Positions 151 through 46,440 of a stretch of 64,000 bases of DNA are shown here, piece by piece. This DNA comes from Vermamoeba vermiformis (taxonomy: Eukaryota), in the NCBI GenBank assembly GCA_045837725.1, contig JBEWZL010000237.1, forward strand, positions 1-64,000, read 5' to 3'. Below the pieces are notes generated by a model. It had not been told where the DNA came from, searched no databases, and saw only the letters and a list, made by a program, of their open reading frames with translations. Within the stretch, counting starts at the first letter, position 1; every line of letters begins with the position of its first letter. The translations under genes were made by a program, and so were the position numbers.

Positions 151-3100
151 TTAAGGCAAGAACATCTGAGTTGCGTTAAAGAGCTGGCTGGCAGGGAAGT
201 TAGCAGCGTTAGGCAAGACTTCTGCCAGTTGAGCCGGAGTCACGCCGAACCACTCAGCAATGCCCTTCCAGACAGCTTCGAATGGCGTTGTAGGGATCAA
301 TCGACCGCGACCGAGACTGAGCTCGCCTTCGTCAGTAAGAGTGGTAGGATATTGGCCTAAGATACGACCGCCATTGACCTTGCCACCGGCGACAAAGTGG
401 TTGCCTCCCCATGCGTGGTCAGTGCCTTTACCGTTGCTCGCTAGAGTGCGTGCAAAGTCAGAGGCCGAGATGACCACCACATCGTCCCAGCGACCTTGGG
501 CCTTCATCTCTTGAGCGAACTTGCCAAGGGCCGTGTCAATAGGGCTCAACATCGGAGCTAAGTCGAAAGTGTTGTGAGTGTCAAAGCCGCCAGTTTGAGT
601 GAAAAACACGGCACGTTCAACTTTTTCTTGGACCGGCAACATCTTGATGAGTTTGGCGACTTGAGCGAATTGTTGTTCAGCGCCTGAATTTCCAAAAGTG
701 GTGCTAAGATTGGCTTTTGAGAGCATTGAACCGAGCGACTCGCTCTTGAGCAACGAGTTGAACAACGCGTCAGAATAAGTCTCGGCAAAGATCGACTCGG
801 ACACGTATTGCGTGAGGTTGTTAAGGCCGTTGCGGATTCTGGTCAAGTCGCGCATTTGAATCACACCACCAGTGGGCGAGAGGAAGTCGGCAGGAGTTGA
901 GCCTTGGACCATCTTAGTCTTGCCTGCAAAGCTGTAGATTGCTGATTTGTATGGAACTGCGTTGGTCACAACGGCGTCGGTGATACGACCAAGAATGCCT
1001 TCAGAAGAAATATCTTGCGCGTAAACATTTTGAACGCTGCGTTGCATAATGTTGTGAGCGAAAAGACTAGGCGGGACTCGCTTAGTCTTCTTGTTGTATT
1101 CGTCCTTGGTGATTGGCTCGACCATGGCACCAATGTTAGCGACAAACATGGCGTCCTTGTCAGTGTACAATTGCTTCAGTTGAGGCATGGCAGGGTGAAC
1201 TCCGAATTTACGGCAAGGTTGGCCAGCAGGCACGTCAATGGGCAGAATCGCTGTCTTGTTCAAAGCAGCGCCTTGACGTACTGTAGCGTACTCGGCGTAA
1301 TAATCTTTTCCAGTGCAGTTTGAGTGAGGCACGATCAAGCTGTAGCTGTCAAAGCCACCGATCTCAAAAATAACGACAATAGCCTTGAATCTTCGACCAC
1401 CACCGGGGACCACAGGAGGAGCTTGACGTTGAGTCGTAGTGAGCACGTTGAGAGTGTTGGTCTGGTACTCAGGACTGGCAACAATCAGCTTCACGACTTG
1501 ATTGACAGCCGTGGTCTTGTTGGCAATGGCGTTGTACTCATTGACGAGCGTGTCACGTGCCTTCTTGTTTAAACGACCAGCAGTGAGCAAAAGGTTAAGG
1601 TCGTCAACAATGCCAATAGCAGTGTTGTTTGTAGCGGGAGGTACGTAAGTCAAAGATCCGTCAATATGTTCAGGACCAATCTTGCCGCAGGATCGGCCGT
1701 AAGTATTTTGACTGACACCAAAACCACTGTCACAAGATGTCAAACCAAGATCTACCAACGAAGTAGCACCGTTAAGGAAGCCAAGGAGGTTAGGGGCGGT
1801 GGCAAGTTGTGACACGGGGCTAACGAGGCCAGCGTTGGCAATAGGACCAGCAGGGCTGTACTCGGGCAAGTAGAAACCGAACACGGAGGTTGCTCCGAAA
1901 GGTTGAACTCCGATGCGATTGATCAAGTTGTAAAGAGCGACTTCACGTTGTCTGGGTGATTTGTAGCCGAGAGATCGCATCAATTGGTAGAGCTTGATTA
2001 AGGGATCCTTCAACATGCCGTAGGTCTTGTCAGCTTCAAGAAGAGGTGTACGTGCCTCACGGTCCATCAAAATAGCGTAGACGGCGGCACCAAGGTCTCC
2101 ATACTTGCCAGTGAACTTCAGACTTCCGTAAGTGCCAGAACGGAACGCGTCAACTACGGCCTTGACGTATCTTTGTGTCGGGTTAGACGTCACTAACTGT
2201 TGAATGAGACGGTAGGCAACGAATGGAGCAGTGTTCTGGTGTTCAGACAAGTGCTCGAGCAGTGCTTCAACTTCGTACTCGGCTTGACGAGTCCACAAAG
2301 TATCCGACGTGTAGTCAGTACCAAAGTCGTTGAGTTCGCCAAGAAGAGGTGCAAAGTGTGGTGGGTTTTGGAAGGTAAAGTTGCCAATTTTGACGATCGA
2401 CTGGCGGTTGAACAAGTAACGCACACGTCCACCGACACGGAAAGGAGGCAATTGAAAGATAGCCTTATCGGAGAGTGTTCCGTTAGGATCAGTTTTCAAC
2501 AACCAAACAGTGACACCTGTCAAGTTTTGACACTCTGATCGGACGCATTGCACGTAAGTTCCAGGGTTGAAAATAGTCGGATCACTAGCACCAATCGCAA
2601 TGCGCTTGCCAATAGTATTAGCAGCTGTGCTGGGACTACTGCCGAGAGTTGCCAATGAAGCGAAAGAATACACGGCGCCAGTGCTTACAGTGAAGCTGCA
2701 AATGCAAGAGTTGCCGTTAGGAGTAACTTGACGCGTGCAACCGACGGGGCAAACGCCGCTTGCAGTGGCAACGGGATAGACATTGTTGGACCAACGCACT
2801 CTGAAGACGTTGTTCGAGTTGTTCAAGAGCAGCTTGAACTGGGCCGTGGAGGGATCAACAATGCCGATTTGACCGGAAGGATAAACTTGGATCTGCACAT
2901 TGCAAGTGCCCGAAGTCCACATATAAACATTGCTGGCGCACGACACGGCGAAACTTGCAGCGTCAGTCAGATTGCTCGAGCACACGCTGAGGCCAAGAGC
3001 AGTGCAACGCTTAGCAGCGGTAGCGTAGTCAGTCACTTCGTTGGCAAACAAACACTCAGAAGTGTAGTTTGAAGCAGCACGAGTGAGAGAAGTAGGCTTG

Positions 3101-6100
3101 CAGCAAACAGGTGCAGCAACAAGTTGAGCAGCGTTAGCGCACTGAGCTCTTGTGCTGGCACGTTTGAGAAGTTGACCAGAGTTAAAGAACGTCAATCTGA
3201 CGCAAGCGGGAGGCACGTAAGAGTAGTATTTGGTCACGTTGGCAACAGGATCGACTACCTTAACGCTGAGGATGCGATCGGTATTACACTCTTGAGTACC
3301 TTTGCAGCCAAGATTGCTGGTCAAAGTCACTCGAAGAGGGAAGGTGCAGGCGCCTTTGTTAGTCGCTGAAGGTGCGCAAAGGACTTTGTGCAGCGCTGAG
3401 ACGTTGGGGGTCGGTGTGAAACGACCGCGCAAACCAACAGGACCGACTTCTTGATCGAGAAGATCGCCTTCAACGGAGAAATCTCCGGTGTATTCGTAAC
3501 GAGCTCCTTTCCTCAAGAACGATTGAGGAGGAAGTTCATCGCAGAGAGGGTACTGGTCACCAATGAAGCCAGAGTCGAGTTTAGCTTTAGGCAAACGATC
3601 GCGCCATTGCGGTCTAATTTGCATGGGATCGACGTAGTTGGGAGGAGTGCCAAACTGGGCCTCTTCCATACCAGTGTTGGTGCGATAACGTTGACGGTCA
3701 AAACCAGTCCAGATACGTGCAAAGTCCAAAATATCGGCGTTAGTATAGGCCTCAATAGGGTTGCCCGATGCGTCCAATGTGCGAGTGCCATCGTCGTTGA
3801 GCTTCCAAAGACCAATGCTGTAAAGTTGCATAATTTCACGGGCGTAGTTTTCATCGGGATAAGAGCCTTGGACAGCATAGGCCTTATTTCCCGTGTAAGT
3901 CAAGTAGTATCCCATCAGTGGGTGATAAGACACGTCACGGAGAATGTTGATAAAGTTGCCAAAAGAATTTCGGACAAACGAGTCGTAGTAGCTAGTCCAA
4001 CCATCAGGATGATCTGCAAAGCCAACGTCCATGCTAATCGTGAAGATGTTGGCCAAAGACCAAGCCATGCGCTGACGAAGCTGGTCAACGCTGTTCAAAG
4101 CGATGTTTTCCAAGACGAAGATTGGATCGTTGCTTGAGGGGATAGGATGGTCCAAGGATTCAAGGCTCTTAGTCTTGGCTGAGTTGCTGTACACTGCGTA
4201 GTGGTAGCCCAATTCAGGTGTTGTGCTGGCCTCAGAAGGTGAGCCACAAACTTCTACGCCACCGACATCGGCAGAGGTTGTGCGCAAGGCACCAACAAGT
4301 GCGGCCATTTCTTCAGTCTGCAACTCGCTGGCCAAGTCAAGGAATGGAACACTGTCTCCTAAGCGACCAATCACAGGAATGTTTGATTGACGGAGGTAAA
4401 AGCGTGACATCGGGTGACTGGCGGGGAATTTCAAGTACACGAGGCCTTGGACTGCCCAGTTAGCAATAGGATTGGGTCTGTTAATAATGATACGAAATCA
4501 GTCTTGAGTTCAGTGAAACGACAACTTAAGAAATATCTGTGACAGACGTCAAACGTGACACGTGTCATGAAGCAAATCTTATTGATTCGAATCTTTACCT
4601 TCCGCCTTGCATGGCAACTGGATTACCATCGTGGATCTCGACCCAACGGGTGAAGTCGCGAACGCTATAAAGAGCAGGATGCACGTGTTGGAAGCATTGA
4701 GTGCCGACTTGAACTTGAGCACCAATAGAACTAGCGTTAGAGTTGCAGTTAGCTCCCGACACGGTGATGTCGACGACGTAAGGATTGGTGTCAGTAGAAG
4801 CACGGAGGGCGTTGGTGATGGTAGTGAGTGTAGTGGTGTCCAATGCAGTAGGAGCAGGGCACGTGATAGCGCCAAGTCGTCTCCAACGGGATACACCGCT
4901 CTTGCAAGGAGAAACATTGTACGGATCTTCCAATCTCAGATCGGTAACGTAGTAGATGTATCGAGTATTTTTAGTGTACCTGCATAAATAAGGATTAGTG
5001 TACATGCGTGGCATTGATTATTCACTCTAAAGCAGAGAAATTTGTTATTGCCTTTTTAGGAAACGGACTAATATAGCGATTTATAGGTATCAATCCGTGC
5101 AAATTGGGCAAAAAAGGATTTTGAGACAAAATCTAACTTACCAAGCACGAAGGATAGTTTCGTTGAGCGGTACCAAAGCGGATTTGAACGACAAAGCTGG
5201 AGAGCAGCCTGAACGGCGCACGCAGTAGTCACGATTCTGGTAGGTCTTGGCAATAATAGGGCATTGGCCTTCGAATGATAGTCCAACGGCAGCTGGGTTC
5301 TCCAGGGTATTTTCAACGAATCGGATGCGTTGGTCAAAGCGGTACGTGTTGGTGCCTTGCTTGATGTATGAGTTTCCAGCAGCATCAGAAGCATTACGAC
5401 AAGCCACTAAGCGCCATTTGAGGACATAAGCACCATTACGGGCACCTACAACAGGGACCAGCAATGCGTCGTTATCTCCAATAGTTTGAACGGCGTTGTT
5501 GGTGCTACTAAATTCAATAGCGGGGTTAATCCAGTTCGTAGTGCAATTAACGGTGCCATTGACGAAGGACAGAGAGATAGTTCCGTTGATCTCTTCGTTG
5601 ATGTTGCAGAAGTACAAAGAGGCAGGGAAGGTGAGAGTACCAGGGTACGGTTGATTCAAGAAGGTCGTGACTTCGCCTCGAAGTGCTCCGTCAACAGTTA
5701 ATAAGAAGTGCTTAGTTGTTGCATTCAACGTAACAACAAGCTTCTTGTATTTGTCGCGGACATCAAAAGCGTATCTTGCCCAGCGTGAGCCAATGTCACA
5801 AGGCTCTACCAATTGTCCGGCAGCATATTCACCAGGGCGAGCGTTAGCGCGTTGTCTGTAGTAAGCACGAGTGAGAGTCGGGGTCAAACGCATCTGATCC
5901 AGAATCCAGTTGCTGTAGTTAGTGCCATAAGCAGTTACTACGCGTTGAAGCTCGGCTTTAGTAGCACCAAAAGTAGCTTGGCTATGAAGACGGGCTGCAA
6001 GTTCCAACGGAGTTACATCCACAAGTTCTTCCGGCACGGCCACGGCTTGCACGCTGAGAGCGGATGCAGTGGTGATCGAGCACGTGTTGTCAGCATCGCA

Positions 6101-8253: not shown

Positions 8254-11229
8254 ATGTCCAAGAAGTTGACTTTGAATCCTAACGCCTCTGAGTTCGTCCC
8301 TGGCTCTGTAAGTATAACTGACAACTACGTCGACGAGCCTGTTTAAGATCCACAACGCATCTCGATCGAATCTAATCGCTGCTGCTATTATTTTAGTTCG
8401 GCGCTCCTACTACCCCCACACCTACCCCTGCCCCTCCTAAACCCGAGCCTACTAAGGAGTCATGGGAAGATAATGTCGATCAAAAGAACGATCAACCTGC
8501 TGCCCAACCCAAGGCTGAAACTAAGCCAGCAGAGAAGCCCGAAGTTAAAGAGACATCTATTGACGATAAAGACGATGATGACAGACCTTTGACTGCTGAG
8601 GGTAAGCACATTCAGAATTTTTATTGAATTAGTATTTGCAACAGAAATTAATTTAGCATTTAAACCGATACAAAATGCTACATAATAATTGTATGCTGCA
8701 CTTTGATGGCGTTATTAATTTATTTAACTGTTTTTAAAAATTTATTTTCGATCGAATCCAAGTATTGCATGGCCACCGTCCCTCCAATATCAATTAATAT
8801 ATGAATGCAAATTAACGCTAAATATATTTTGAACGTAAAAGTTCTTAATTTGTACGTCCCCTCGTGGATAATTCAGATCTCGATCACGGATGAAGTAACC
8901 GTTTTATTAACGTTAATTATCATAGAACTTAAGGAGCTCGAACGATTGAAGATTGAAGAAGGATTAGAGAAGGGCGACGGTGAAATCGTCTTCAAGGAAG
9001 AAGTTATTGACGATCCTCGTGAACACTTGAACATCGTTTTCATTGGTCACGTCGGTAAGTGTCAATTTTCAGCCTATAATTCATAACAATCGCTAATATA
9101 ATATTATGGAACAGACGCTGGCAAATCAACTGTTTGCGGTAACATTTTGTAAGTTTATTTGAAACGCTGGATTTGCACGAAGATTTTTGAAACAATTGTG
9201 GCTAATATGATACAATAGGGTACAAACTGGTCAAGTCGACGAGAGAACAATTCAAAAATACGAAAAGGAGGCAAAGGAAAATAACAGAGGCAGCTGGTTC
9301 TTCGCTTACATTATGGATATTAACGACGAAGAAAGAGCAAAGGTACGATAATAATATCAATATTATAGCGAGTACACAATAATAATAATAATAATACCAT
9401 TGTAGGGTAAAACCGTCGAAGTCGGTCGCGCTCAATTCGAAACTGAGAAAAAACGATACACTATTCTGGATGCACCCGGTCACAAGAACTACGTGCCCAA
9501 CATGTTGATGGGTGTCGCTCAAGCTGACGTTGGTGTGTTGATTATCTCCGCTAAGAAGGGAGAATTCGAGTCTGGTTTCGACAAGAACGGTCAGACCCGT
9601 GAACACGCCATCTTGGCCAAGACTTTGGGCTTGAAGAAATTGATCGTCGCTATTAACAAGGTCGACGAACCCACCGTCAACTACGATAAAGCAAGGTACG
9701 TAGATTTTAAACGAACTGCAACGAAAGAAAACCAGATCCCGCGTTATATTATTTTACGATGATGTTTAGATGACGAGACTGAAAATTAACAAAAATGTTG
9801 ATTAAATTTGGCCTGAGCAAAATAATATAACGACAATAGATATGATACCTCGAACGACTCTATCTATCCCATAATACTTACGCATGTTGTTTTAGATACG
9901 ACGAAATTGTCAGCAAGATTACCCCGTTCTTGAAACAATTCGGTTACAATATGAAAGACGTTACATTCTTGCCCATGTCAGGCTACGCGGGACAAAATAT
10001 TCTTCAAAAGTTCCCGACTGGCGTGTGCAGCTGGTACCAGTAAGTCAATCGTACCAAAGTCGGATCCAAAAACAGCACTTTTACAAAGTTGTCGATACTC
10101 ACATTATCGATGATTTCACGTTCGTGCTAATATTCTTTTTTTTTGCTTACTGAATTATTTTTTTAATGACGTAATTTCAGAGGCGAATCTTTGATCGGTA
10201 CTTTGGACGCTATGGATCCAATTGAAAGAAACGAAACTACCCCATTGAGAGTTCCCGTTCTCGATAAATTCAAGGAACGAGGTGTTTTATTCGTTATGGG
10301 CAAGGTTGAGTCCGGTACTGTCAAGCGTGGCGATACCTGCGTGTTGATGCCTGGCAGAGTAAGTACAGTGCAATTAATATTACTGGTAGTGCGAAACTAA
10401 TTTATAACGGTAGATCCCCGTTGAAGTTTTATCTTTATCCAACGATAAAGCCAACTTGTCACACGCCAAGCCCGGTGAGAACATCAGAATTGGCTTGAAA
10501 GGAGGTACGTCTAACATGCAAGTTACACTGGACAAAGTCTAACCATAATCGTGCAGTCGAAGAAGATCATGTCCACAGAGGCTTCGTGTTGTGCGCGAAG
10601 GAATCACCTGTTCACGTCGTATCTGAATTCGTTGCTCAAGTCGTATTCATGGAACTCTTATCACACAAGTCTTTGTTCACAGCTGGTTATCAAGTAAGTA
10701 CCAGCGATCAAAACAAGCACGGCAGCCTAGTCGTAGTCTTGCCTTCGGGATTTTGCCGGCGGCTTCTTCGTAAATCAACAAATGACAACATGGCCGAGTG
10801 GTTAAGGCGAAGCACTCGATCAATCGATTTGTTTATTTACGCTTCATTATCCTTGTTTTTTTTTTTTGCATTGCCCCAGCTAACTTTTTGATTAGGCTGT
10901 TATTCATATGCACACCGCTGTTGAAGAAATTACTTGCGTGGTACGTTTAGAGATTTCTGTCTATGCGGATTTGTTCTGATCTTTATTTTAAGCGCGTGCT
11001 TGCTGAATTGGATAAGAAGACTGGTCAAGTAGATAAGAAACTGCCCAAGTTTGTCAATAGTAAGAGTTTGGCTGTCATTCACTTCCAATTGGCCAAGGAC
11101 GTCTGCATGGAGGCCTTCAGTGACATCCAACAATTGGGTCGCTTCACTTTGCGAGACGAAGGCAAGACTATTGCTTTCGGTAAAGTTTTGTACATTGGTC
11201 CTCCTAAGAAGAAGAGCGCTGCTAAATAA
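8254..11229 (+). CDS. SUP35: Eukaryotic peptide chain release factor GTP-binding subunit eRF3 (multi-exon)
   Basis: N-terminal PAM2 motif LNPNASEFVP; REHLNIVFIGHVDAGKST; LDAPGHKNYVPNM; GQTREH; AINKVD; LGRFTLRDEGKTIAFGKV. Confidence 0.95.
9752..9822 (+). ncRNA. Intronic box C/D snoRNA, snR75/SNORD15-like D' guide (LSU rRNA, yeast Gm2288 equivalent)
   Basis: In eRF3 intron 9696-9895: C box ATGATGT (9759), guide TTAGATGACGAG complementary to conserved LSU rRNA CUCGUCAUCUAA, D' CTGA (9779), C' ATGTTGA (9795), D CTGA (9813), imperfect terminal stem TTTTAC/GCAAAA. D'+5 falls on the G. Confidence 0.85.
10784..10820 (+). pseudogene. 5' half of tRNA-Ser(CGA) inside an eRF3 intron; no 3' half
   Basis: GACAACA TG GCCGAGTGGTTAAGGC G AAGCA CT CGA gives acceptor 5' strand, Ser-type D arm and anticodon 5' stem/loop. 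No T-arm or 3' acceptor strand follows. Confidence 0.7.
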
Positions 11230-11637
11230 GGTGATCCGTTTTCAAGGTAGATTCACATCTTGATCGTTTAATAATCACCGAGATTCTTTGGCTAGTAATT
11301 TGCTAAAGAATGCGAAATAAATTTCTTTTATCTAATCGGACGCTTTGTTCTCTTTGCTAACGTGGCAGATTCTGGATCAACCATTTTTTTTCAATTCAAT
11401 GTCGCGAAAGTTGGACGTCTGTACACGGAAGTATTACAGCTCCCTCCGGTCATGGCTTCTTTCTCGCTTTCCTAATTTAGAAAGTCCGTGCCGTCGCCGA
11501 AATCTACCTTGAAGAACGGCGAATGGAAGCTTGGTCGGAGTAAATATTTAAAGCTTCAGATTCGAATTAATTATTCATTAACAAAACAACTAACAACAAA
11601 TAACAACAAGTTTTTACTATTTTAATCAAGCAACAAA

Positions 11638-33357: not shown

Positions 33358-36300
33358 TTATTTGTGCTTCAAAGTGCACCAAATGGTTTTACTAGTCCAC
33401 TCGATTGGATCAACGAGATTAACCGTGTTAGGTCCAACTCCCTACCAAGAAGTACTGTTATTAATTGCACTATGTATAGTAGCTTATACATTAACATACC
33501 CTAGTCGCGGAGTATCCTTCTTGTTCGAGGTATCTGTAATTCGTCGGCTCAGTCGTCACGTAAAGTTTGTATGCGGCCTTATTGACACGTCCGGGAATTG
33601 ATTTGTCAATAGCTACTGGTCCATATGCTTTGGTGCCATCTGGAATATTCACCATAAACTCGGTGCTGGGCAATGGGCCTGTGTCTGCGTGGTCTTCGGG
33701 ATAAATTTGTTTAATGCCACCGTTTTCGTCGAACTGAATGATGGCAAAATAGAGTTTTTCTTGCGACGTTTGTCGGACACCAAATCTGATGTACTCTCCT
33801 TCGACGAGTTCACCATGGCCTCGAATTTCAGTCCACTGCTGCACCGGTGTGAATTTGCTTTTTGAGTGATAAACAACGAACTCGATCTGATCCTGCCACA
33901 AGGTCTCGTTGTGATTATGTAAATGCATCTCGTATTGTGCATAGGCTAATAGGTTGTTCACTATCGCTTCTTTGTTTGATGACGGATCAGGGGGCAAGAC
34001 GATGTTATTGTCCTTGTCCGTTACTACGTATGCTGTAGTTTTGGTCAAATTGATGAAATGATTAAACGGTTGCTGCATTTCTTTCATTATCAACACGGCT
34101 TTGTTCTTTTCGACTTCGCGGAATCTTTCGCTCAACTTCGTTCTGACACTTTCCAGACAGAAGGCGGGCAGGTTTATAGCAATACGATTCTCATCTGCCC
34201 GTTGGATCTCGAATGCACGGTACCCCTTGAGCTCGTAGTCGACATTCTGTTGCAGCGAAGCCCAACAAGTCGTGCTTCCGACGAAGACAACAGAAGCTGT
34301 CATTTGAGAGCTGCCATCGGGCACTCTCACATTGGGCTTGTAGAGGGCAAACACTGAGCCTCGCGTTATTGCATGCACAGTGCCGACATCAAGCTGTACG
34401 TCATCACCGTCCCGACCGATGACAACTGCAAATTTGCTGCCATCGAGCTTGGAAGTGCCAAACAGCTGCCACGTTCTTTCACCTTCAATCTTTGGCGTCT
34501 GCTTCTCAAATTTTGTGGCTATTTGTCCAAAGATGTCGCCGTAGGTCACTTGTTCGTCCACGCTCGTAATTGATTGCAAGGCAGTGCACCAATAGAATGT
34601 CAATGCACCGTATGACTTAGCTTCGTGGTCCACCTCGTAAGCGAGCCTATTATACGCACAAGCAGCGATAACAACGACGTTGTCGAGTGAGGGGCGATAA
34701 TTGTGAAGACGATCAATGTTTTCTAAGGCATAGTAGGTCAGTACAAGTCACACCATAACAAGTGGTACTTACTGATTGATTGTGTCGTCCCCAAGCGCGA
34801 GTCATGCGATACAATGCGGGCTCGAACAAGCTTGGTTGGATCTCTCGTGATAGATTCAGAGTGACAGGAATCGAAGATGACTGATACGTGAGCTGCGTAT
34901 TTTGATAGCTCCGACAAAAATGCTCTGATCTCTTCATCTGTTATGTCGGTAGATGGTGGGACTTGGCTGTCATCCTCTATAAGGCCACCGTCCTTCTTCA
35001 AGCGACCGCTGTCACAGGGCACAATAGTCTCGTTCTGACCTGTTGGATGATTTGGGTTTGGTCGCACTGAGCCATGACCACTGTAGTGAATTGTAACAAC
35101 TCCGCCGGGATTTTGTTTTACGTTCTCAATCAGAGTTGCGAAGGCAGCTAAAATATTGTCACGTGTCGGGAGATTTGACGTCTGAAGGTTGTCGTCGCTG
35201 ATCAAGCACATGATGTTCTCTTCCTTGAATCCAAACTTGTTGATCAGTGTAGTCTTCATCAATTCGACATCGTTGACAGCACCAGTAAGACCTTTGATAT
35301 ACTGGTACTTGTTGATGCCTATCAGCAGCGCCAATTTTAGGGTTTGTTTCTCGCTATCGGGACCTCTTGTTCGATTAGTGAGTTGGACATTCGCAAACGG
35401 GTCGTCGTTGCCGTGTTTTCCAATCATGAAGTCCGCTGGTTTATCATCGGCTGTATTCTCTGCACTGGTGGCAGTAGATGAGGGCGGCGCCGCAACTTGA
35501 AATCTAGAAAAATTGTTGAGTACGCAGTCCATTATTTCATTAATAGGCATACCTATTTGGTGTGGCGTGTTCATCGATACCGTCGCTAATCATTTGTTCT
35601 TTCAAATAATTAAGCTCGTCAACGACGTCTGCATTGTCTGGTCGGTCTATTGACGCATCCACATCGCTGATAGAGCACTCGTAGATCTCTTTAAGACCAT
35701 CGTTTGTGAGGGTTTTGAAGATTTCTTCTTTGTGCGCAAGAATGTACCACAGAGTGTAAGACGGGCATCGCATATACACTAGGGCACTGCCGCGTGCTTG
35801 CACAACATCATGAACAGGAACGCCAAGAACTTTCAGCGAGATAGCAGCGTATTCGGAGACCGCTCTAATAGTGCCGTTAGGCTCGTATCGGAAGCACAAA
35901 TAGATTTTTGGCTTGGGCTCCGGTCTAATTGGTGGCGCAAGGCTCCATTCGTCGAGAAATTCGATGAAGCAGGATTCAAACACTTGATCCGGATCTCGAC
36001 CACTGCTAACACCGCTGAGAAGTACTTCGAGTCCATCAATAGCCAACAACTTCTTCTCAGGGGAATGTAGCTGGTTGTAATCTAACTCCAACGTATCCAA
36101 ACTGACCGCCTTCACCTTGCACTGCAGCGTGCCAGTAACTATCTGGTTGTCTTTGATTCTTTTGACGTTTGCGATGCTGGAAACTGTCATTAACGGACTT
36201 CCTTGTTCTTGACTATTCTCCAGCAACAATATGGCGTCGTTAGCAATGGACAAACAATCCATCATGGTGAGGGCACTTAGGTTATTGTAAGAGAGTACCA

Positions 36301-37072
36301 ACACGTGTCGTTTTTTGTCGGTCACAAATTGTTGAAAGCTGAAGAGATGAAGGTTGGCAGAACTTGCTTCTTTCTCGTACTTGAGCTTCTGCAGTGCTTT
36401 TTGAACACACTCCACGAACTTTCCGGGCACCAAAAGTAGCACGTTTGTATTGACATCAGAGGTCGGAGTTGGCACCATAACAGGAAGAGGGTGAGTAAAT
36501 TGATCGTGTTGCACTTCAGCAGGTTGCAAGGGAGGAGCAGGCTGCGGAACATTAGTATTGTTTGTGTCGTTTCCAGGGGTTCCTTGCGGCGACTCGCTGA
36601 CTAACGGCATTGGGATTTCGTTCGTATTTGTTGCGTAGCAAATAACGTGCTCGACATGATTATCAGCGGCGAACAAAAACCAAACATTTCCCGACTTGTT
36701 TTTTTTGAAGTCAATTTGATTCAAATAACAAACCGGGTCAGTAGTTTTAACGCTCTGTTTGCATTCAAATAGCGCAGTATCGTCGCAGAGCAGTGTTACA
36801 GGTGCCATCGTAACAAACCAATAGATTGAGCGCCCAGAGAGTTTTTTATCTGCAGGAAGAGGCTTGGCAACTTGGATGATCTTTTTGTTTCGCTTTTCGA
36901 CGTCCGTCAATTTGTTTCCAAGGTCTTTCACTCGTATGTAGCGCAGTCTCGGTCTGAAGAAAAGCATTTTAGCTAATAGTCCGCCGCAAATAATACACTT
37001 ACAGAGGGTCACTACAGACCGCCATTGGATCGGACTGGTATTGTTGCTCGGTGTTTGTAATGAGCGAACCAT
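33358..37072 (-). CDS. Large caspase-family protease (Peptidase C14, prokaryote-like) with ~510-aa N-terminal extension and C-terminal DUF4384-like domain; exons 37072-35553, 35503-34773, 34722-33500, 33441-33358
   Basis: ALLIGINKY..LTGAVNDV; HYSGHG and IFDSCHS catalytic dyad; IAAC...AYE; YGALT; QTPKIEG; DVGTVHAITRGSVFALY; EGEYIRFGV..LYFAIIQFDENGGIKQIYP. Three short GT-AG introns join the ORFs in frame. Confidence 0.9.
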
Positions 37073-37596: not shown

Positions 37597-40318
37597 TCAG
37601 AAGCCAATTACAACGTAGTTTTTCCACTCATTAGAGTGATGGAAAAGATCTGAAATCGCTTCACGGTATGCAACGATTTTTGACTTGCCTTCACTAATGC
37701 GCCTGTAGAACGATGACATGAATGCTTTGGCCATTTCGTCTTTGATACTCGTCAAAGTGGCCACAACACACTCCGCACCTATTGTTCCGCTTTAATTAAT
37801 TGAATAAATGGATCCATCGAGTTTCACGTACCAACCACGATGAACGACATGTAGATACCGAGAGGACCAATCGACACTTCAGCGCCATCAGCAGTACTGC
37901 AACACGAAAGCGTGACTAACTTTAACCGCTCCATATTTGGAGATGTCAAAATGTCATCAGCGTTTAGCAATTCTTTGCCGAACAATTGAATCTTGCCTGA
38001 CAGCTCGTAGTAAGTGCCGCCATGGCCTTCAGGCTTATTATGGCTTGCCAAATGAACGACAGTTAAAAGTTTGTTGCGTAGTGCTGCGATGACTTGATCG
38101 CGACAAAAATCCTTGCCGATCAACTTCTTTGGCTTAGTCAACTTCAAGAGCTCTTCAATCTGCTTGATTTCATGTTGAACTTCGTCAAGATCGCCCGTCG
38201 TCAGTCCACCGAGCAGTGTTGCTGTGCTGCTGTCCAGCGTCACGCCACGCAACAGTCCAGCACAGCGCTGTTTCACAAACCAAAACAGCGATGGAAGAAT
38301 GCAGACGTGCTTCTCTTCGATCAAGTACTTGGAGGTATCGGGAATATTGAATGCGGCAGGATTGGACCACTTGCCTTGAAACACAAAGCCCACGTGTGCG
38401 AATGGTTGGAGTGCTTCGTGCAAGATTAAAGGGTACATGTCTTCTTCTTCTAATTCAACTGGCTTGGGAGGCACGCCACGAGTAACTCCTGCGACATCAC
38501 TCACGGACACCATTGAGTATCGCTTTCTGTTCTTCGGTCGTTCAAATGCCATGACTGCGTTCTTCGAGATGAAGTAGATGTACTCAGCACTCGCCTTGTT
38601 GAATACATCTTTGCATAAAGAGTAGACCACAATCGCTGACACGTCGTCGAGAAGTGCTTGAACTTGTGCCACGGTCACTGCATCTTCGTGTCGCAGATGA
38701 ACATTAGCGTTGTAACTGAGCGATGTCAGTGACAGTCTGAACCAATCTGAGACTTCAATCGCTGAGGAGATGTCGCCGAGAGACACGTGTATGAGTTGAT
38801 AGAGTTGCGAGAGTTGATGGTGTAGCTCGAAGGCACTCAGTACCAGACGTGAGCTCGAGGAATTATTCAATATTCTTTTCGAACATTCAATGCACTCTTC
38901 GATACTTTCTTTCGCTTGCGTCAGCTGGTTCAACTTCCAGTAAGCCAAAGCCAAGCCGTAGAGTCGCATAATTATGAAATATTCTTCTTTGACACTTTGA
39001 CAGGTTGAGTTGACGAGCTCTTGGATTGCAGCGTGATAATGTTCGTCTAGAAGATGCGCGAAGCCAAGTAATATTGTTGCACGCTGAAACTCTCCTTTCT
39101 TATCGTGTGCTGCGGCCAGTTCTTTGATACGTGTGAAGTGCCGTTTAGCATCATCAGCTTGGGGTCTGACGAAGAGTGCAACATAGCCGAGATTGAAGCG
39201 CGATGCAGTGATGCCATCGATGTTGTTGCATTGCTCGTACCATTGCAAGCTCTCAATGTGATACTTCTCCGACATGACCGAGTATTCAGGCTGTCGCTGC
39301 TGCTGACAGAGAATGCCCAAAATATTGTTCACAAAAGCTCGTTTTGGTACGGGAATATCCCAACGCAAGTACTCGTCAAGTGTCATTTTAATCTCGTTCA
39401 TCTTTTGTGCATCGTCACCGCTGATGTGAGGGACAATTGGCGAGGAGTGAAAGGCCGAGGGAAGTTCGTCCGGTTCAAGCTTGATGAGGTCATTCCACGC
39501 CTCTTTGAACCACGCAATGGCGTTCGTAATGTCGCCATTCACGATGTACATAATGATGATGCTGAAGCGCATTGTCGTTTTAAACGAAGGAAGCGTTTGC
39601 CGGACAAACACGTCTTTTTCGTGCAGCAGCTTGGCTAGTTGTGGTATTATTCCGTCGAGTTTTGTCATGACCTCTTTGGGTATTTGATTCAATATACGCT
39701 AACAGTTCGATAAGTACTCATATATATTATAAGAGGTTTACTAACCTCGACATTGGCAATCGTGCGCTCAAAGTTGCGAAACGATTCAACGCCCTTCTCG
39801 AAGCATTCATTTGCCTTCTGAAACTCTCCGCGCAGTCCATAACAACGACCTTGCCATAACTTGAGTCCAATTCCAAGCACGGAGAAGTACATATTGGCAG
39901 GGAAAGTACAAATAACAAATCGGATCTTCTCCAGAGCTTTGAGTATATTCATAGCAACTTCTATGAAATTGGTGCTCGGGACTTGGAGCTGTTCTATAAG
40001 GTCTTTAGCCTCGCCAGACTCGTGTTGAATCTGATTCAAAAGAGATCGCATCCGGCCCGCTTCGTCGAGCTTCGCGGCTATCATTGAAGATGCGAGTTCG
40101 AAAAGGTTATTGTTGAAACAATACTTTTCAACTTCGATCCACTTCGTCCGTAGAGAATGCAGGTCTTCACCGAGGGTTGCTAACTTTGAAAGGGCTTGCA
40201 CGGGATCGGGATATTCATCTTTCGGTTCAATAGACTCAATCTTACGCCAAATGGCACGAAAAGTTTCTTCTGCTTCTTTATCCACTATAGTAATTATCTT
40301 CCTGTTATTCTGTAGCAT
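37597..40318 (-). CDS. TPR-CHAT protease A (exons 40318-39746, 39698-37832, 37778-37597)
   Basis: Helical/TPR repeats (NNILGILC, RFNLGYV, LYGLALAYWKL); CHAT motifs YLIEEK, VHLASHN, LVTLSCCST, GAECVVATL..IKD, W..YVVIG. Confidence 0.88.
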
Positions 40319-40657
40319 TGCGAGCCTGAAAACTAAAATTAATTTTGGTTTTCAAGATCGGCTTCTGAAAGTGCAGCCAACAGAGCAAACAATCAAATAC
40401 AAAATCTTGTGCTACCATAATGATGAAAATTATTTACCTTGTTACTCTTGCTCCCGAAACTGACACGCTGTCAAATCCGAAGAATATGGAACTATTGATT
40501 GTGGAAGTACAGTTGTGGATAAACCTGTAGAACCTAATTTCAACAATGGTGCATCGGTGGAGAAAAGTTTTCAAAGAATAGATTGATTTGTGGCACAAAA
40601 AAAAAAGAATTGAATTAGATCAGTTCACTTCGATTATATACTTACAACACGACCACA

Positions 40658-42295
40658 ATGAGCACTAAAATTCTAAATTGGGATATTAAATTGAGCCAAG
40701 ACGTCCTAGGAAGCTTGCTAAACTGCGCTACTGGCCTTCAAGTCTCCGGATTAAAGGTGAATCTGAAGCCTGGCTTATTTAAAGTTGTAGACGGCGCAGC
40801 AGAGCTATTCTTCCACGCAGATAATGGCGCCGAAGTGTCTATAAATGCGATTTTGCGCATCAAAAAGGCATCAGCAACCAGCGTCACACTGATCCCCGAG
40901 AAATTTGATCTAAATCCAAAATTTGTCAAGGTCAGTCACAATTCACAAAAACTTTTTGTTTCTGTACCTCCAATTACTTCCGATGGACTTGGAAAAGATG
41001 ATAGCACTCTTCTTGGAAACAGCATGCTTGATTTTTTGTTGCCGATTCTATTGGAAGCGATGATGACAGGACACAGCACCGCCATTCCCAAGTCTTCACC
41101 GACCACGGTAGACGGTGACACACTGCCAAAACTGATCGACAAAGCGACCATTCAACAAGTCGTCGTTAATCTTGCCGGCGAGTTCAAGTACTTCGAGACA
41201 GCTGTCAAACTGAGAGACGCATCCAATGTCACTCTCACTGACGTGTACCTCGATCTGGCGCACAAACAGCTCGAGTCAATGGCATCCGTGAATCTTCTCG
41301 TTGCTGATGGTACTATCAAGCCCTCAAAGTCTGGCTTACTGAACCTTCACGATCTGCAATTGTTGATACCACAACTTGCGTTGGAGGCCAACAATAGAAC
41401 CGTGCACGTGCAATCTCTTGCTCCGTTCAGTATCAACTTCGGTGGCAGTGGCAGTGCAGTGCTCAACATTGGCAACACAACGATCAACTTGACGCAAGGA
41501 GCGCTTCAGATCGAGCAACTCGAAGCAACGGAATCACCCGATGCAACATCTCTGCAGTTCACTGTCAATGCTCAGTTGAAGCATGCGATGACGTTAACAC
41601 TCGGGGATGGCATGCAACTCATTGCAAGTCAGTTCCACAGTCGTGTCCACATCGGCGCGGAGTCACAGATCCAAAGCCTGCAAGCCCGTCTAGCGATCGA
41701 TAAATCTCGTCTTCTCGCGCTATTAAAGCCTGAAATAGAACGCAAGTTAGTTGGCGTACGTTTGCACGGCGAATTCAATTACGGACCTGCTTTGAACGAG
41801 AAGTTGATGAGCGTCGACATCCAGCCAGGAGTCACTGCGCAGCTTCAATGGGTCCATGGCACTAACGACGCAGTTGACGTGACTATCAATGCAAAGCTGG
41901 GAGGCGAGCACAAGACTTTCATCGCAAGCAAAGGACTGTTCGATTGGCCAATGAAGTGGGAGAGTGATGGCCACATAGTGATGGGCGATGCCAATGCTTC
42001 GTTGCGATGCAGCCTCAAAATCAATCCAGGTAACAACGCGAGCATCGGAGTCAACACGACAGTAAACAGCCTTCAGCTGCCCTCGATCAGCATCTTCCTC
42101 ATCCCGGTTGGCGATTTGCTCTCACAATTTGGCCATCTCTTCAAAGTACCTGATACGAGTGTACCTCTCCCTAACATTGGCACTGCCACTGGATTGTCAT
42201 TCATGCGTGGTTTGAGCATCAAATTCGCGCAGTTTGTTCCCTCCCAGACCGGCAACACGGTTGATCTAGATATTAATGTTAGCAATGATAGATAA
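40658..42295 (+). CDS. Intronless 545-aa beta-strand-rich protein of unknown function (possibly TULIP/AsmA-like fold)
   Basis: Long clean ORF with amphipathic beta pattern; no signal peptide or catalytic motif recognised. The fold is a guess. Confidence 0.75.
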   Translation: MSTKILNWDIKLSQDVLGSLLNCATGLQVSGLKVNLKPGLFKVVDGAAELFFHADNGAEVSINAILRIKKASATSVTLIPEKFDLNPKFVKVSHNSQKLFVSVPPITSDGLGKDDSTLLGNSMLDFLLPILLEAMMTGHSTAIPKSSPTTVDGDTLPKLIDKATIQQVVVNLAGEFKYFETAVKLRDASNVTLTDVYLDLAHKQLESMASVNLLVADGTIKPSKSGLLNLHDLQLLIPQLALEANNRTVHVQSLAPFSINFGGSGSAVLNIGNTTINLTQGALQIEQLEATESPDATSLQFTVNAQLKHAMTLTLGDGMQLIASQFHSRVHIGAESQIQSLQARLAIDKSRLLALLKPEIERKLVGVRLHGEFNYGPALNEKLMSVDIQPGVTAQLQWVHGTNDAVDVTINAKLGGEHKTFIASKGLFDWPMKWESDGHIVMGDANASLRCSLKINPGNNASIGVNTTVNSLQLPSISIFLIPVGDLLSQFGHLFKVPDTSVPLPNIGTATGLSFMRGLSIKFAQFVPSQTGNTVDLDINVSNDR

Positions 42296-42960
42296 AAATT
42301 AATAATTAAGTGCATAGCTAAATTTGGCTTTAGTTCCTCATCATTCAATATCCCGATAATAATTCATACAAAAAATTTAATTAATTGTAAATAATAAGAT
42401 AATTGCGATATCTTGCAAAATAATACACGAGTATTGAGGTAATATTTTTAAATAAAAGATTTACCTGCATTGTTTCAAAATTAGGCAAACGCTTCATGCT
42501 ACTGCTATTGTTACAACCGGCGCCAGAATATCGTAATAATTTAAAATAGGTTTGCGTGAGTGCAGTTGTATAGTTAACGTTTCGTGTTACAGAAACGAAT
42601 TTATTTCTGGCGATGATGGGAACACAAAACTGTTGCACAAACCCGTACATTGCATCCCGCCTTACCTTAGCCTTCAAATGACAACGCGCGTTATGTCAAC
42701 AAGCCGGTTATCGTGACGCTTTATTATCAAGGCATAGCCTTTTCTAGGTGGTTTAATTAAATTGACCGCGTAACGTTGGCTGAAAGGTAACGAAAACAAT
42801 ACAGTACTGCTTATTCGTCTGAGTCTGGATAAAATTCATCTTTGAGGTTCTTCATGAAGCCCATAAGGCTTGCTAGTTGAGGTTGTAAGGGATACGTTTG
42901 TGCATTGATTTCACTACTTGCATTAGCGTACAGTACGCGAGTTAATTAATATGCTGTGAC

Positions 42961-45906
42961 TTACTGTACGTGCGACGGCAATCCGATAAATCTGCGGTGA
43001 GATAGGATTGGTGAGAAATCTTCTGCTTGTGGCGCCAAGTTGCTGAACCCAATGGCAACAATCTCGTCATTTGGCTGACCAACGAGAATGAAGGGAGCCC
43101 AAACGAGGTGTGCTGGATCCCTGTCGCGTGCTGCAAGCATTGCATTGCGTAAAGCGACGTCTTTTGGCTGACTAAAAATGATAAAGTTTGTGTAAAAGTC
43201 GACCATCAGCTGAACTGTCTTTTCATCGGAGATTGGCCAAAGAGACGCAATCACAGTGGGTACTCCTGCAAGCAAGAAGGCTCTGTAATAATGTTAGTCC
43301 TCAATTAATCAATCTCGATTTGCACGCACCTGACAAGTCCTGCAACGCCATCGCTGCTGACGTCACCACGTGCTGTATTGCACGCTGAAAGAACGACCAT
43401 CTCGGTGTGCTTCAAATTCAGCAGTTGGATTTCATCTGAAGATTACGTAAGAAACTGTAAGCTGAACAACTTGTCTATTTTACTTGACCACAGTGAGCCA
43501 TTGTTTCCAGCCAGTTCAATGCTGCCTGTGAAGTTTTCACCTGACTCGGTAACAACGCTACTCAAACCAGCGTGCGTGGCAAAATGAGCCAAGTGCGACG
43601 AGGACAGCTCTGCTAAAGTCTTTTCCTTGGTGGCCTCGGTGTTCAACAGCACTTTAAGCTCACAATTCCAGTCTTCAAATGCTGTTTGGACATCTCTCGT
43701 TTCTTGTTCAGCGTAAGGTAAAGGTTGGAGATCAGGACGATGAGGGTGACCGACCAATAAGCAGCGAGGAGTGGCCTCTTTATCTTCTGTATGGTGACGT
43801 GTCAGTGGCTTGTCACGGTACATCTTTTGTGTCAACATGAAGAGCTGTATGGAGTATTGCACGGAGATAACGAACGAATCGATCAGTGCACTCTGCGATG
43901 TAGCGCCCAATGCAGCAAATGGTATTAAGAATAAGGGTCCCTAAAGCAAGTCAGAATTGCTGTTTGAGTCACGAAGATCTTACCGAAGGAACTATGAGCA
44001 GCGCGGGCTTCTTATCGTTCCAAAAAGAATCTTCTTCCGTTTCGTTCGAAAAAGGAAGATAATCTTTGATGGGCTCAATGAGTACGTTGTAAAGTGCGGC
44101 CAAACACTCTTCTGTTGACGCTACGCCATGCAATTCAACGGACTTTGCTGGCACACCTCTATGTGCATCCGATCCTGAATCCATTTGTTTTGTGTTTGAA
44201 CGAGTGCCAATGGCGTCACGAGTCCTTGTGACAAGGTCTGCAAGTGATTTGAAGTCGTTCGAATCAATCTTTTGCTGATGAAAACGAACTTTGTTGTTCG
44301 GGCAAATGACCCACGTTAACAGCACTTCATTAGAAGCAACACCAGATCTTTGTTATGAGATAGACGACCATCGTCAACTTGATTCGCTGAGTCCACTATC
44401 GTTTGAAGTGTAAATTTGCATGTACTGCTCGTATTTTTCTTCAGGTATTGGACACAAGCTCGAGCACGCTATTTCAGTGTCATCAACGCGGACTCGTGAT
44501 TGCCGATGCCAATAAGAGCTAGTATCAGCAAGTCAGAGACTTGGGCTTGTTTGCGCAGTAGTGCGACGCGTCGTACATCCAACGCCAATGAATTTTCATC
44601 TTCGCTTTCGATGTCCGTGGAAAGCACATCGTAGGACTTGAGTGCTTCGCTCAAATGTGTCACTGCATCTTCGTAACTCTGCTCAATGAGTAGCAGTCTC
44701 CCGAGCAGCGTCCGAACCAAGATTTGATCTCCAATTGACAGCGCGTCGATGCCGTCAAGTGCTAATTGAAGGTTGGTCTTTGCCTCTTGTGCACTCTTTG
44801 GCAGCACACATGTCGCGAGCCGTAAGTGGAACTCTGCTTCGAGCTCAGGGGCTGGTTTGTCTTTGAGTAGACTAAGAGCGCCATCGGTATCACCTTGGTC
44901 AATTAGCAGTTCAGCGAGGTGAACTCGGCACAAGTCGCGCTCTTTGCTGTCAGTCGCTGCTTGCTGTGCCAGTGTTAAATAGTGTTGCGCATCAGCCTTG
45001 GCTCCCGATCGCTTCAAGTACAGTCCTATTCAAGATGAGCTTGATATCAACGGGATGATCGGCTTACCTGCTCGAATTAGCGTAGTGTATATCAGTGACA
45101 GGTCTTCTAGCGGGAGATCTGCGGCAGTTTTCAGACTTTGTGCTGCAGCTTGATACTTTCCTTGCTTATCTTGCAGGAAGCCAGTAATAATAAGCGCTTT
45201 TGCTTGAACTTCAGGGTCATTCACCGTGTGAGTGCAGAGAAGATCAATGATGACACTGACGGGCAGCAATAATTCTAAAAAGAAATCTTTCTCTGGCTTG
45301 GTGTATTTTTCGTATAACAGTTGAATTCCTCGTGCGTTTTCCTTTCATTTGTATGCGCAAGAAGGCTCTTAATCTTGCCAATCATGAGAAGAATTAGCGC
45401 ACCATTGTAAGACGGCTCAGATGCGTGTGATTCAATAGCTAAAAGTTGTGTGTGCGCTAAATTGACGTTTAGTTTCTTCGGATTAAGGGCCAATAATGCA
45501 TAAAACATTCGAAAATAAATTGGCTCGTCGGCAAATACGTCCAGTTTTTCTTTTTCTTCCGTATTTTGAATAGCCGTATTAATTAGTCGCTCGGCGTCCT
45601 CAAGTTTTTGCAATTGCGCAGCGGATTTTGCCGAGAAATAAGCACAGCGGCCAACCCAAGCTCTTATATTCTTCTTTTGAGCTCGATCCAACGCAGTTTG
45701 AAAATGCTTTAAAGCCCGTTTGTAGAGCTTCTTGTCATAATTAAACTTTCCTAATCTGTAATTATCTTCAATAATTTGATACGTTCCTCTCGCCTAGAAT
45801 CATAATCAGACCAATTATTGTTTCGAAATATAAAACAACGCACCAAATCATCGTCAGCACACGTCAAAAGAGGGTTATGAGGCAGTCCAGGTGCGCGATA
45901 ATCCAT
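42961..45906 (-). pseudogene. TPR-CHAT protease B (TTC28-like CHAT), apparently disrupted
   Basis: TPR exons; LLIVPS|GPLFLIPFAAL, LPYAEQE, AHFATHA, VVLSACNTARG, AGVPTVIASLWPISD, WAPFILVG. In-frame TAG at 44469-44471 (ALMTLK*RARA), frameshifts near 44380 and 44345, and an unresolved frame change near 45340. Confidence 0.75.
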
Positions 45907-46440
45907 TGTGTTTGGTTTCTCTTCGTTTACTTGTTTGATTCAATCGAATGAATTCAATGTGTGTTCATAAAAGTTTTCCCGCCCCAAGACATGTGCCTGT
46001 CACTCTTCGCTATTGAAACAACATCGCCAAGCCGCTCATTGTCGAACACTAATAGTTAAATGCTGTCATTAAATTCATAAGAGGGGCTAGAACTAAGGTA
46101 ACGCCCGAAGTGCTGCATCTGTCGAGAAACTGTTATATTGAGTCGTAGCATTAATGTCTTTGTAGTAATTAATATTAATTATATTAATAATTTTTAAATA
46201 ATTTTTGGATAGGTTTGTTAATGTTAAGTGGTTCAAAAGAAAGCAGAATGTTTGGCTGGAACTAATTTAGAACGTACCGCTTGACCTAAAAAAAAGCTAG
46301 CGCGATAAAGATAAACAAGGCGTAGTGCTTTGTGCCTCGTTGCACGAATCTACAGAAATTAATTTAGTAACAGATATTTTTTATTTTGTTCGAAGGTTAA
46401 AAAACTACAAATACTACTTATTCGAAAGAAAGGGCAGCAC

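Follow-up and report, generated by a model that had tools for sequence, protein, structure and literature searches.

An Arg-Gly loop peptide shared by two TPR-CHAT proteases of Vermamoeba vermiformis: an apparently inherited family motif next to a metacaspase gene

A 64,000-nucleotide stretch of Vermamoeba vermiformis DNA (assembly GCA_045837725.1, contig JBEWZL010000237.1, positions 1 to 64,000 of the forward strand; hereafter the window) encodes two proteases with tetratricopeptide repeats (TPR) and a CHAT domain, here termed CHAT A and CHAT B, together with an adjacent caspase-like (C14) protease. The two CHAT proteins share a short peptide, RGVP(P/A)K(P/S)VEL, which an initial annotation had interpreted, along with repeated TRG tripeptides in the caspase, as a common processing code linking all three proteases. 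Judging from the alignments presented here, the shared peptide is a descendant of a loop motif that belongs to the cyanobacterial-type TPR-CHAT family, to which a lineage-specific VP.K.VEL extension has been added, i.e., it would be a built-in element of the CHAT protease and not a private cleavage code. The peptide is considered inherited because both copies map to the columns of the family motif in two hhalign alignments.

A peptide shared by two divergent CHAT proteins

The presence of the motif in both CHAT proteins was confirmed (Table 1). The CHAT A peptide, GVTRGVPPKPVEL, is located inside the minus-strand open reading frame (ORF) 37824..39692, and the CHAT B peptide, AHRGVPAKSVEL, inside the minus-strand ORF 43969..44325. 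The two decamers, RGVPPKPVEL and RGVPAKSVEL, are identical at 8/10 residues and 21/30 bases, with four of the eight conserved residues being specified by the same codon and four by a synonymous codon; these synonymous differences exclude a recent gene conversion and indicate that conservation has acted at the protein level. In a six-frame translation of the entire window, the tetrapeptide RGVP is found at just these two sites.

As had been proposed, the motif is positioned just ahead of the CHAT core in both proteins (in the CHAT A ORF the motif occupies residues 405-414 and the Pfam CHAT match starts at residue 429), and its surroundings are indeed divergent: CHAT A and CHAT B are 25% identical over 282 pairs in a family-guided alignment, while BLASTP aligns them over the catalytic part alone (29% over 146 residues, E 1e-10). 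Taken on its own, the motif is a BLASTP match of 20 bits with an E value of 0.26, which is not significant if its position is disregarded. It is, nonetheless, the best-conserved 10-mer between the two proteins, with 8/10 identical residues versus a maximum of 6/10 elsewhere, at the catalytic Cys (273 windows compared). The similarity is therefore regarded as real, since the two peptides occupy the same family-profile columns and no other 10-mer window exceeds 6/10. A word-index search with the CHAT B exon among longer proteins returned no match.

A loop motif of the cyanobacterial-type TPR-CHAT family

CHAT A is an extreme outlier, with 14 matches at E<=1e-3 in a HMMER search of 1.84 billion representatives. 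Only one of these is close, namely P0001, a 95% identical, unspliced ORF call from a relative, while the distant matches include cyanobacterial-type TPR-CHAT proteins such as P0003. When P0003 was itself used as a query, 4618 homologues were obtained at E<=1e-10, and the best 120 of these 4618 matches to that one query served as the family sample, yielding an alignment of 104 sequences, mostly cyanobacterial, and 115 linkers. The alignment reveals a loop motif, L..LV..sR.sIGVRGRG, whose most frequent residues were counted, out of 104, as R145 89, I148 78, G149 83, V150 66, R151 82, G152 76, R153 71 and G154 40, so that the Arg-Gly of the shared peptide (R151 and G152) is conserved in homologues. 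Furthermore, RG is present in 57/115 linkers, whereas composition predicts approximately 0.22 such dipeptides per linker.

Both proteins of the window could be placed on this motif. Alignment of CHAT A to the 104-sequence profile by hhalign (probability 97.6%, E 4e-12) sets DVAGV-TRG on ESIGV-RG, and the corresponding alignment of the CHAT B exon (probability 97.8%, E 1e-12) sets DAIGTRS on ESIGVRG and LADLVTRTRDAIGTRS on LANLVTVARESIGVRG. In family columns, CHAT A reads DVAGVTRG and CHAT B TRDAIGTRS, and the upstream Arg, R145, is replaced by SVS in CHAT A. In the CHAT B alignment, the family profile is interrupted by 12 gap positions that separate IGTRSN from GVPAKSV; when this insert is removed, CHAT B reads DAIGTR-GVPAKSVEL, against DVAGVTRGVPPKPVEL in CHAT A. 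The VP.K.VEL segment falls where the loop varies among the bacterial proteins and is without counterpart in the bacterial consensus. Given that the remainder of the two proteins is so divergent, the alignments show the motif to be under apparent purifying selection. N-terminal TPR repeats occur in both CHAT proteins, as in the cyanobacterial-type subfamily.

A hand reading of the alignments indicates that the family-invariant residues P180, D378, R385 and W400 are kept in CHAT B and not in CHAT A, and CHAT A may be changed in specificity or inactive. The putative His-Cys catalytic dyad is conserved in CHAT A and CHAT B, the His and Cys blocks of both aligning with the family-invariant H319/H323 and C368. 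Of note, around residues 788-810 of CHAT A (window about 37910-37832), the His and Cys are retained and several of the residues that are invariant among the 104 members are gone. A full-text literature search found no title or abstract concerning a conserved loop motif of TPR-CHAT proteins, although a published description may nonetheless exist.

Predicted structure and known relatives

The position of the motif in the fold was derived from an AlphaFold2 model of the family member P0112, built with the 104-row alignment (predicted local distance difference test (pLDDT) 87.4, predicted template modelling score 0.90). This model has a helix at residues 137-147, a coil at 148-165 and a further helix at 166-177. 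The L..LV..sRes block forms the end of the first helix and IGVRG exits it, while the second helix corresponds to the LQQLHQLLIEPI block that opens the catalytic lobe. The sole internal stretches below pLDDT 50 are residues 153-160, right after IGVRG, and 375-378. In this model, the motif is thus shown to begin the sole long floppy loop predicted to join the pseudo-protease lobe to the catalytic lobe.

The two-lobed fold was seen for the bacterial P0112 model, the AlphaFold2 model of the CHAT A exon being too poor in this respect (mean pLDDT 50.5); in the latter, residues 399-410 are coil below pLDDT 50, followed by VEL as a strand and then by a helix. The segment that carries the motif Arg is accordingly predicted to be coil or is of low pLDDT in both models. 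The motif is therefore not predicted to be buried: it stands at the start of a loop that is disordered in the confident family model and coil in the low-confidence CHAT A model. A PDB profile search was swamped by TPR proteins and was uninformative for the loop.

The P0112 model matches the structures of Csx29, DdvA and separase (E 2e-14 to 1e-9), proteins of a type described as combining a pseudo-protease lobe with an active lobe. The closest likeness of the CHAT proteins of the window is to cyanobacterial TPR-CHAT proteins such as P0112, P0065 and P0133, which their sources name 'CHAT domain-containing tetratricopeptide repeat protein' and in which TPR repeats are likewise followed by a two-lobed CHAT region. 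These share with CHAT B the blocks LLTWVICP, LADLVTRTRDAIGTRS and LYNVLIEPIKDYLP as well as the His and the Cys, and the loop Arg-Gly aligns. The window genes differ from them in having spliceosomal introns in a eukaryotic genome and the VP.K.VEL extension, and in the very divergent nature of CHAT A.

Csx29, the TPR-CHAT component of Craspase in type III-E CRISPR-Cas systems, whose substrate is Csx30, has the same fold (matched by the P0112 model at E 2e-14, with template modelling scores of 0.5-0.6), and its activation has been attributed to a conformational change on RNA binding. Unlike Csx29, the CHAT proteins of the window have no CRISPR context; the likeness seen here is one of fold. Separase (Peptidase C50), which the P0112 model matches at E 3e-12, is described as having two caspase-like lobes, of which only the C-terminal one is active, and a preference for Arg at P1. 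The separase site is (D/E)xxR, whereas P4 is Gly in CHAT A (GVTR) and Asp in CHAT B only (DAHR).

A proposed hinge or latch acting in cis

The explanation favoured here, to which about an even chance is given, is that the loop motif serves the very CHAT protease that carries it, in cis, as a hinge or latch, and was inherited from the cyanobacterial-type TPR-CHAT family. Both genes would derive from TPR-CHAT proteases of that type with a separase/Craspase fold, in which the family element consists of a helix ending in L..LV..sR.sIGV and of an RG(RG) that starts the interlobe loop. Both paralogues would have retained the Arg-Gly and gained VP.K.VEL, leading into the first helix of the catalytic lobe, and purifying selection would have kept the motif while the remainder drifted to approximately 25% identity. 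Such a hinge or latch may set the seating of the two lobes, with the Arg-Gly segment gating the catalytic lobe and the VEL strand serving as an anchor. A cut after the Arg would be possible and not required, and cleavage at this position is compatible with the sequence data.

Gly-rich segments at lobe junctions are typical hinges. This reading is favoured because the motif is partly helical and confidently packed and because relatives are activated by conformational change or filament formation; for CHAT and separase-type proteins, conformational change, oligomerisation and filament formation have all been described as routes to activation.

Several points weigh against it. A cleavage or docking site would likewise be expected to show up as sequence conservation within a disordered loop, and separase, a relative, is reported to cut after Arg and to cut itself, a self-cleavage that is described as leaving its activity intact (PMC4626109). 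The strong retention of VP.K.VEL in CHAT A and CHAT B, which a plain hinge would leave unexplained, hints at a lineage-specific partner. In addition, a second CHAT subfamily among the HMMER matches (P0004, 5, 6, 8, 9, 10 and 14) is without the motif; the family sample is biased towards the nearest relatives of one query, so that the statement on the family holds for that subfamily only; and the CHAT A model is poor (pLDDT 50.5).

The metacaspase and alternative explanations

The third protease, initially annotated as a caspase, is a metacaspase, as indicated by a Pfam C14 (PF00656) match of 74 bits and by HYSGHG and DSCHS at residues 646 and 718, respectively. Its closest solved relatives are metacaspases rather than animal caspases, namely the plant proteins AtMC4 (6w8s) and AtMC9 (8a53), both at E 5e-19, followed by TbMCA2 and Yca1; alignments of the catalytic domain with these proteins span E 5e-19 to 6e-12 and include the HYSGHG and ETIVPCD blocks. 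Unlike these relatives, the protein of the window is 1185 residues long and comprises an N-terminal region of approximately 500 residues, the C14 domain and a DUF4384-like C-terminal part, the latter scoring 18.9 bits, below the Pfam cut-off of 27. Such an architecture is typical of bacterial C14 proteins. The N-terminal region belongs to no known family: it gave no Pfam match up to E 10 and no usable ESM Atlas match, and the idea that it represents a degenerate CHAT lobe was rejected at a hhalign probability of 0.2%.

Among the alternatives, the one that survives best, although it is considered unlikely, is that the loop is a self-recognition site of the CHAT protease, i.e., an autoinhibitory pseudosubstrate or a site of self- or trans-processing after Arg, with the metacaspase tail TRGVGPNTVNL as a substrate, so that the CHAT protease would cut the metacaspase. 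The conservation of Arg-Gly in an interdomain loop predicted to be disordered would fit such a role, as would the reported Arg specificity and autocleavage of separase-type relatives. There is also a described precedent for this direction, which is the reverse of that initially proposed: in Haliangium ochraceum, SAVED-CHAT is reported to cut and activate PCaspase, a second, C14-type caspase-like protease, the genes being located together (bioRxiv 10.1101/2023.06.23.546230). That system differs from the window in that it is described as prokaryotic and linked to defence and as having a SAVED sensor activated by cyclic triadenylate (cA3) in place of the TPR; no SAVED domain was found on the CHAT proteins of the window, on which Pfam finds TPR and CHAT only.

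The metacaspase contains two 10-mers with three or fewer changes from the motif, LLVPGKFVEC and RGVGPNTVNL, a number reached or exceeded in shuffled sequences with P 0.00175; each copy alone is, however, weak (P 0.057 for one or more), and sub-patterns were chosen post hoc. The second of these 10-mers lies in the C-terminal tail, which constitutes a weak third copy of the motif (7/11 residues as in CHAT A) and exists solely if a predicted 59-nucleotide intron is spliced, a junction without read coverage. The apparent absence of P180, D378, R385 and W400 from CHAT A, as read by hand, likewise speaks against self-recognition.

Genomic context bears on the same question. In 79 cyanobacterial loci (mean 15.9 kb), each with a member of the family, a metacaspase-like (C14) gene, counted at tblastn E<=1e-3, is located within 10 kb of the TPR-CHAT gene in 13 cases and in none of the other 66, against a chance expectation of approximately 1.8/79 as calculated from 66 C14 matches in 46.8 Mb (five of those genomes). 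At three loci, the C14 gene is directly adjacent on the same strand, 176-350 bases downstream. The association between the two types of protease is genuine and ancient, and may be due in part to clustering in defence islands. It counts in favour of self-recognition, yet the loop is not mirrored in the C14 partner beyond chance: among 12 cyanobacterial CHAT-C14 pairs, the best 8-mer common to loop and C14 protein was at shuffle level in ten and gave P values of 0.02 and 0.045 in the remaining two, i.e., no excess for 12 tests.

Of note, the loop and the C14 protein of a Scytonema sp. pair (CHAT 10001-11380, C14 4583-3777) have GRDAIR in common (P 0.02), an isolated case among the 12 pairs.

A more elaborate version of this scheme is quite unlikely, namely that the interlobe loop presents the sequence which the protease itself recognises, serving as a latch until activation cuts or displaces it, that the same sequence recurs in the metacaspase tail, and that the eukaryote inherited a bacterial-type cascade in which the CHAT protease acts ahead of the metacaspase.

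It is decidedly improbable that VP.K.VE(L) is instead a docking motif, bound without cutting by a shared partner such as the metacaspase N-terminal region or a TPR groove. This idea draws on the fact that a six-frame translation of the window contains VP.K.VE three times and no more, once in each CHAT protein and once, as VPGKFVE, in the N-terminal region of the metacaspase (P 0.0016 in shuffled metacaspase), and on the conservation of its residues within a loop stretch that varies in the bacterial family. The pattern was, however, picked post hoc, and the metacaspase region concerned is unrelated to the CHAT profile and of no known family.

The initial proposal, that the metacaspase cuts both CHAT loops and itself after Arg at (T)R-G sites, one code thereby serving three proteases, is very unlikely. 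Metacaspases are reported to cleave after Arg or Lys, and the protein of the window, a true metacaspase by the matches listed above, would be expected to do the same from its family membership; the CHAT loop is predicted to be exposed, and RTRGP stands seven residues ahead of the catalytic domain. Of the caspase peptides that had been pointed out, RTRGP, SITRD and ITRGS are indeed present, while ATR/GVGP (the slash marking the intron) is present only if the predicted intron is spliced. TRG occurs three times in the metacaspase versus 0.16 expected (P 0.0002), which at first sight suggests a signal. Yet when all tripeptides are counted, nine reach a count of at least three, shuffled versions containing 10.2 such tripeptides on average, and the enrichment was dismissed as post hoc. 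In addition, two TR(G/D) sites fall within conserved metacaspase blocks, PTRDN aligning with PT..NI, a block conserved in the solved metacaspases of plants, and SITRD lying next to the catalytic Cys. The TRG tripeptides of the metacaspase are, on these counts and alignments, best taken as chance or structural.

The loops themselves argue in the same direction. Conservation between CHAT A and CHAT B is found on the C-terminal (prime) side of the Arg, while P4-P2 are GVT in CHAT A, DAH in CHAT B and SAT in the metacaspase tail; a conserved non-prime side (P4-P2), as expected of a cleavage-site motif for clan CD proteases, was thus not found. Furthermore, the loop motif is kept in bacterial relatives that are mostly without C14 within 10 kb (66/79), and CHAT B is frame-shifted in this genome. 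With an inherited family motif, differing P4-P2 residues and TRG at chance level, a common code linking the three proteases finds no support.

Least probable of all is that the similarity is a relic of common descent without present function, or a coincidence, as the non-significant stand-alone BLASTP score and the availability of a single close orthologue for comparison (P0001) might suggest, for two independent profile alignments assign the peptides of CHAT A and CHAT B to identical family columns, the motif surpasses the catalytic-Cys block in conservation and its codon changes are synonymous.

Gene models and the state of the three genes

The window is regarded as eukaryotic because the three protease genes, all on the minus strand, are interrupted by short GT-AG introns of 43-59 nucleotides, which rules out a prokaryotic ORF reading, and because further ORFs of the window encode Kelch, EGF, ankyrin and PPR domains; no tRNA genes were found in it. 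Introns were checked against contigs of a relative (run X5), which are mostly 90-99% alike to the window and in which introns are skipped. The coordinates of genes, motifs and other features are listed in Table 1.

Table 1. Positions of the protease genes, their motif-like peptides and other features of the window.
Feature	Position	Strand	Remarks
CHAT A gene (TPR-CHAT)	37597..40318	-	exons 40318-39746, 39698-37832, 37778-37597; 873 residues; own splice model from ORFs
CHAT A loop motif DVAGVTRGVPPKPVEL	38451..38498	-	residues 592-607, loop Arg R598; contains RGVPPKPVEL 38480-38451
CHAT B gene (TPR-CHAT)	42961..45906	-	catalytic-half exons 44349-43984, 43940-43484, 43435-43330, 43282-42961; TPR half up to ATG 45906
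CHAT B loop	44131..44244	-	family block LADLVTRTRDAIGTRS 44244-44197; 13-14 residue insert SNTKQMDSGSDAH 44199-44161; RGVPAKSVEL 44160-44131
Frameshift in CHAT B TPR part	45327..45341	-	three-frame view; relative's contig; frames read by hand
Unreliable patch in CHAT B	44343..44471	-	in-frame TAG 44471-44469 and frame change
Metacaspase gene	33358..37072	-	exons 37072-35553, 35503-34773, 34722-33500, 33441-33358; 1185 residues
VPGKFVE	36410..36430	-	metacaspase N-terminal region; sole other VP.K.VE in six-frame translation of the window
RTRGP	35359..35373	-	7 residues ahead of metacaspase domain start (KLALLIGINKY, residue 563)
SITRD	34840..34854	-	starts 4 residues after catalytic Cys, Arg 7 residues after; inside active-site block
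ITRGS	34355..34369	-	after p10-like part
Predicted C-terminal tail ATR/GVGPNTVNL	33415..33508	-	spans predicted last intron; ATR/GVGP = 33508..33500 + 33441..33430
545-residue ORF between the CHAT genes	40658..42295	+	no known family

CHAT A is intact, with both the His (HLASH, residue 740) and the Cys (LSCCST, residue 788) in place, a Pfam CHAT match of 46.1 bits (cut-off 24) and TPR matches including TPR_8. Its last intron is confirmed by a spliced contig of the relative (joint 37776/37830), while the first, 39745-39699, is predicted only. The catalytic half of CHAT A (37941-38396) is matched by a few RNA reads (90-95% alike), which diverge at 38396, just downstream of the motif; they hint that a paralogue of CHAT A, differing in its upstream part, is expressed. 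Overall, only 39 and 56 reads were obtained from two RNA runs of the same species label. Nearly all of them were 90-95% alike and of partial fit, and such reads probably stem from paralogues and are hence uninformative on the expression of this stretch.

The catalytic half of CHAT B, motif included, is also intact (HFATH and LSACNT present), its last exon scoring 59.9 bits for Pfam CHAT (cut-off 24), and TPR_21 and further TPR families are matched in the protein. Introns 43983-43941, 43329-43283 and 45843-45794 are confirmed by the spliced contigs of the relative, 43483-43436 is predicted only, and the 3' end is uncertain owing to a GTAAGT that overlaps the stop. The TPR half of CHAT B is disturbed, with at least one genuine frameshift: at 45334, the window and independent DNA contigs have 7 letters, versus 14 in a transcript-like spliced contig of the relative, which reads through.

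A second region, 44343-44467, looks like low-quality assembly, and the window is untrustworthy there: in DNA contigs of the same organism label, 26 additional letters are scattered over approximately 125 bases with identical flanks, and over 44089-46100 (2012 bases) these contigs differ from the window by 2 other letters and 26 gaps. A reading of CHAT B as a heavily decayed pseudogene with four frame breaks was thus rejected, since one break corresponds to the intron 45843-45794, the unreliable patch contains the TAG and a further shift, and a single 7-letter shift stands. A DNA contig of run X1 (depth 152 versus 280-700 around it) links position 38021 in CHAT A directly to position 44058 in CHAT B, with 6036 bases skipped and 1 extra letter at the joint; either a deletion allele or a graph artefact may lie behind it, and the fusion would be out of frame by hand count.

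The metacaspase gene adjoins CHAT A, and a 510-residue ORF that the initial annotation had left undiscussed is its N-terminal part. Introns 35552-35504, whose removal fuses two ORFs, and 34772-34723 are confirmed by spliced contigs of the relative, and the last intron, 33499-33442, is predicted, no read or contig crossing the junction. A spliced contig of the relative also shows a 163-nucleotide intron, 37295-37133, ahead of the start codon of the metacaspase, and a short upstream ATG in another frame (37299-37297) points to a 5' exon or an upstream ORF of the gene.

The 545-residue ORF between the CHAT genes is covered by a contig of the relative as one unspliced piece. It matched no Pfam family up to E 10, and ESM Atlas scores of at most 0.86 are a lead only. 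RNA depth in two runs was 0.5-2.5 at 41389-42250 within this ORF, with shared differences and with unlike sequence from 41545 and 41926, and an expressed paralogue of the ORF is probably present elsewhere in the genome. Finally, a 1429-residue open frame on the minus strand (151-4440) joins DUF1800 (189.8 bits) to DUF1501 (103.8 bits). Both are bacterial families, and the frame, located in an intron-bearing eukaryotic window, may be a gene acquired by transfer.

Implications

As regards the window, the proposed cleavage code resolves into one real motif, apparently inherited, and chance tripeptides, with one of the three genes damaged. The wider interest of the motif lies in the family, as TPR-CHAT proteases are very numerous in filamentous cyanobacteria, with 4618 matches to a single query, and to our knowledge the way in which they are switched on is not known beyond the CRISPR-linked Csx29 and SAVED-CHAT. 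The Arg-Gly at the start of the interlobe loop is a small candidate element for such a function, and it is kept in two divergent eukaryotic paralogues better than the active-site block. Should the loop indeed display the protease's own recognition sequence within an inherited cascade, which was judged quite unlikely above, the RG(RG) loop found across the family would provide the switch that has long been sought for the many cyanobacterial TPR-CHAT proteins. Furthermore, TPR-CHAT genes lie beside metacaspase genes in cyanobacteria approximately seven times more often than expected by chance, and a two-protease pathway is therefore worth considering.

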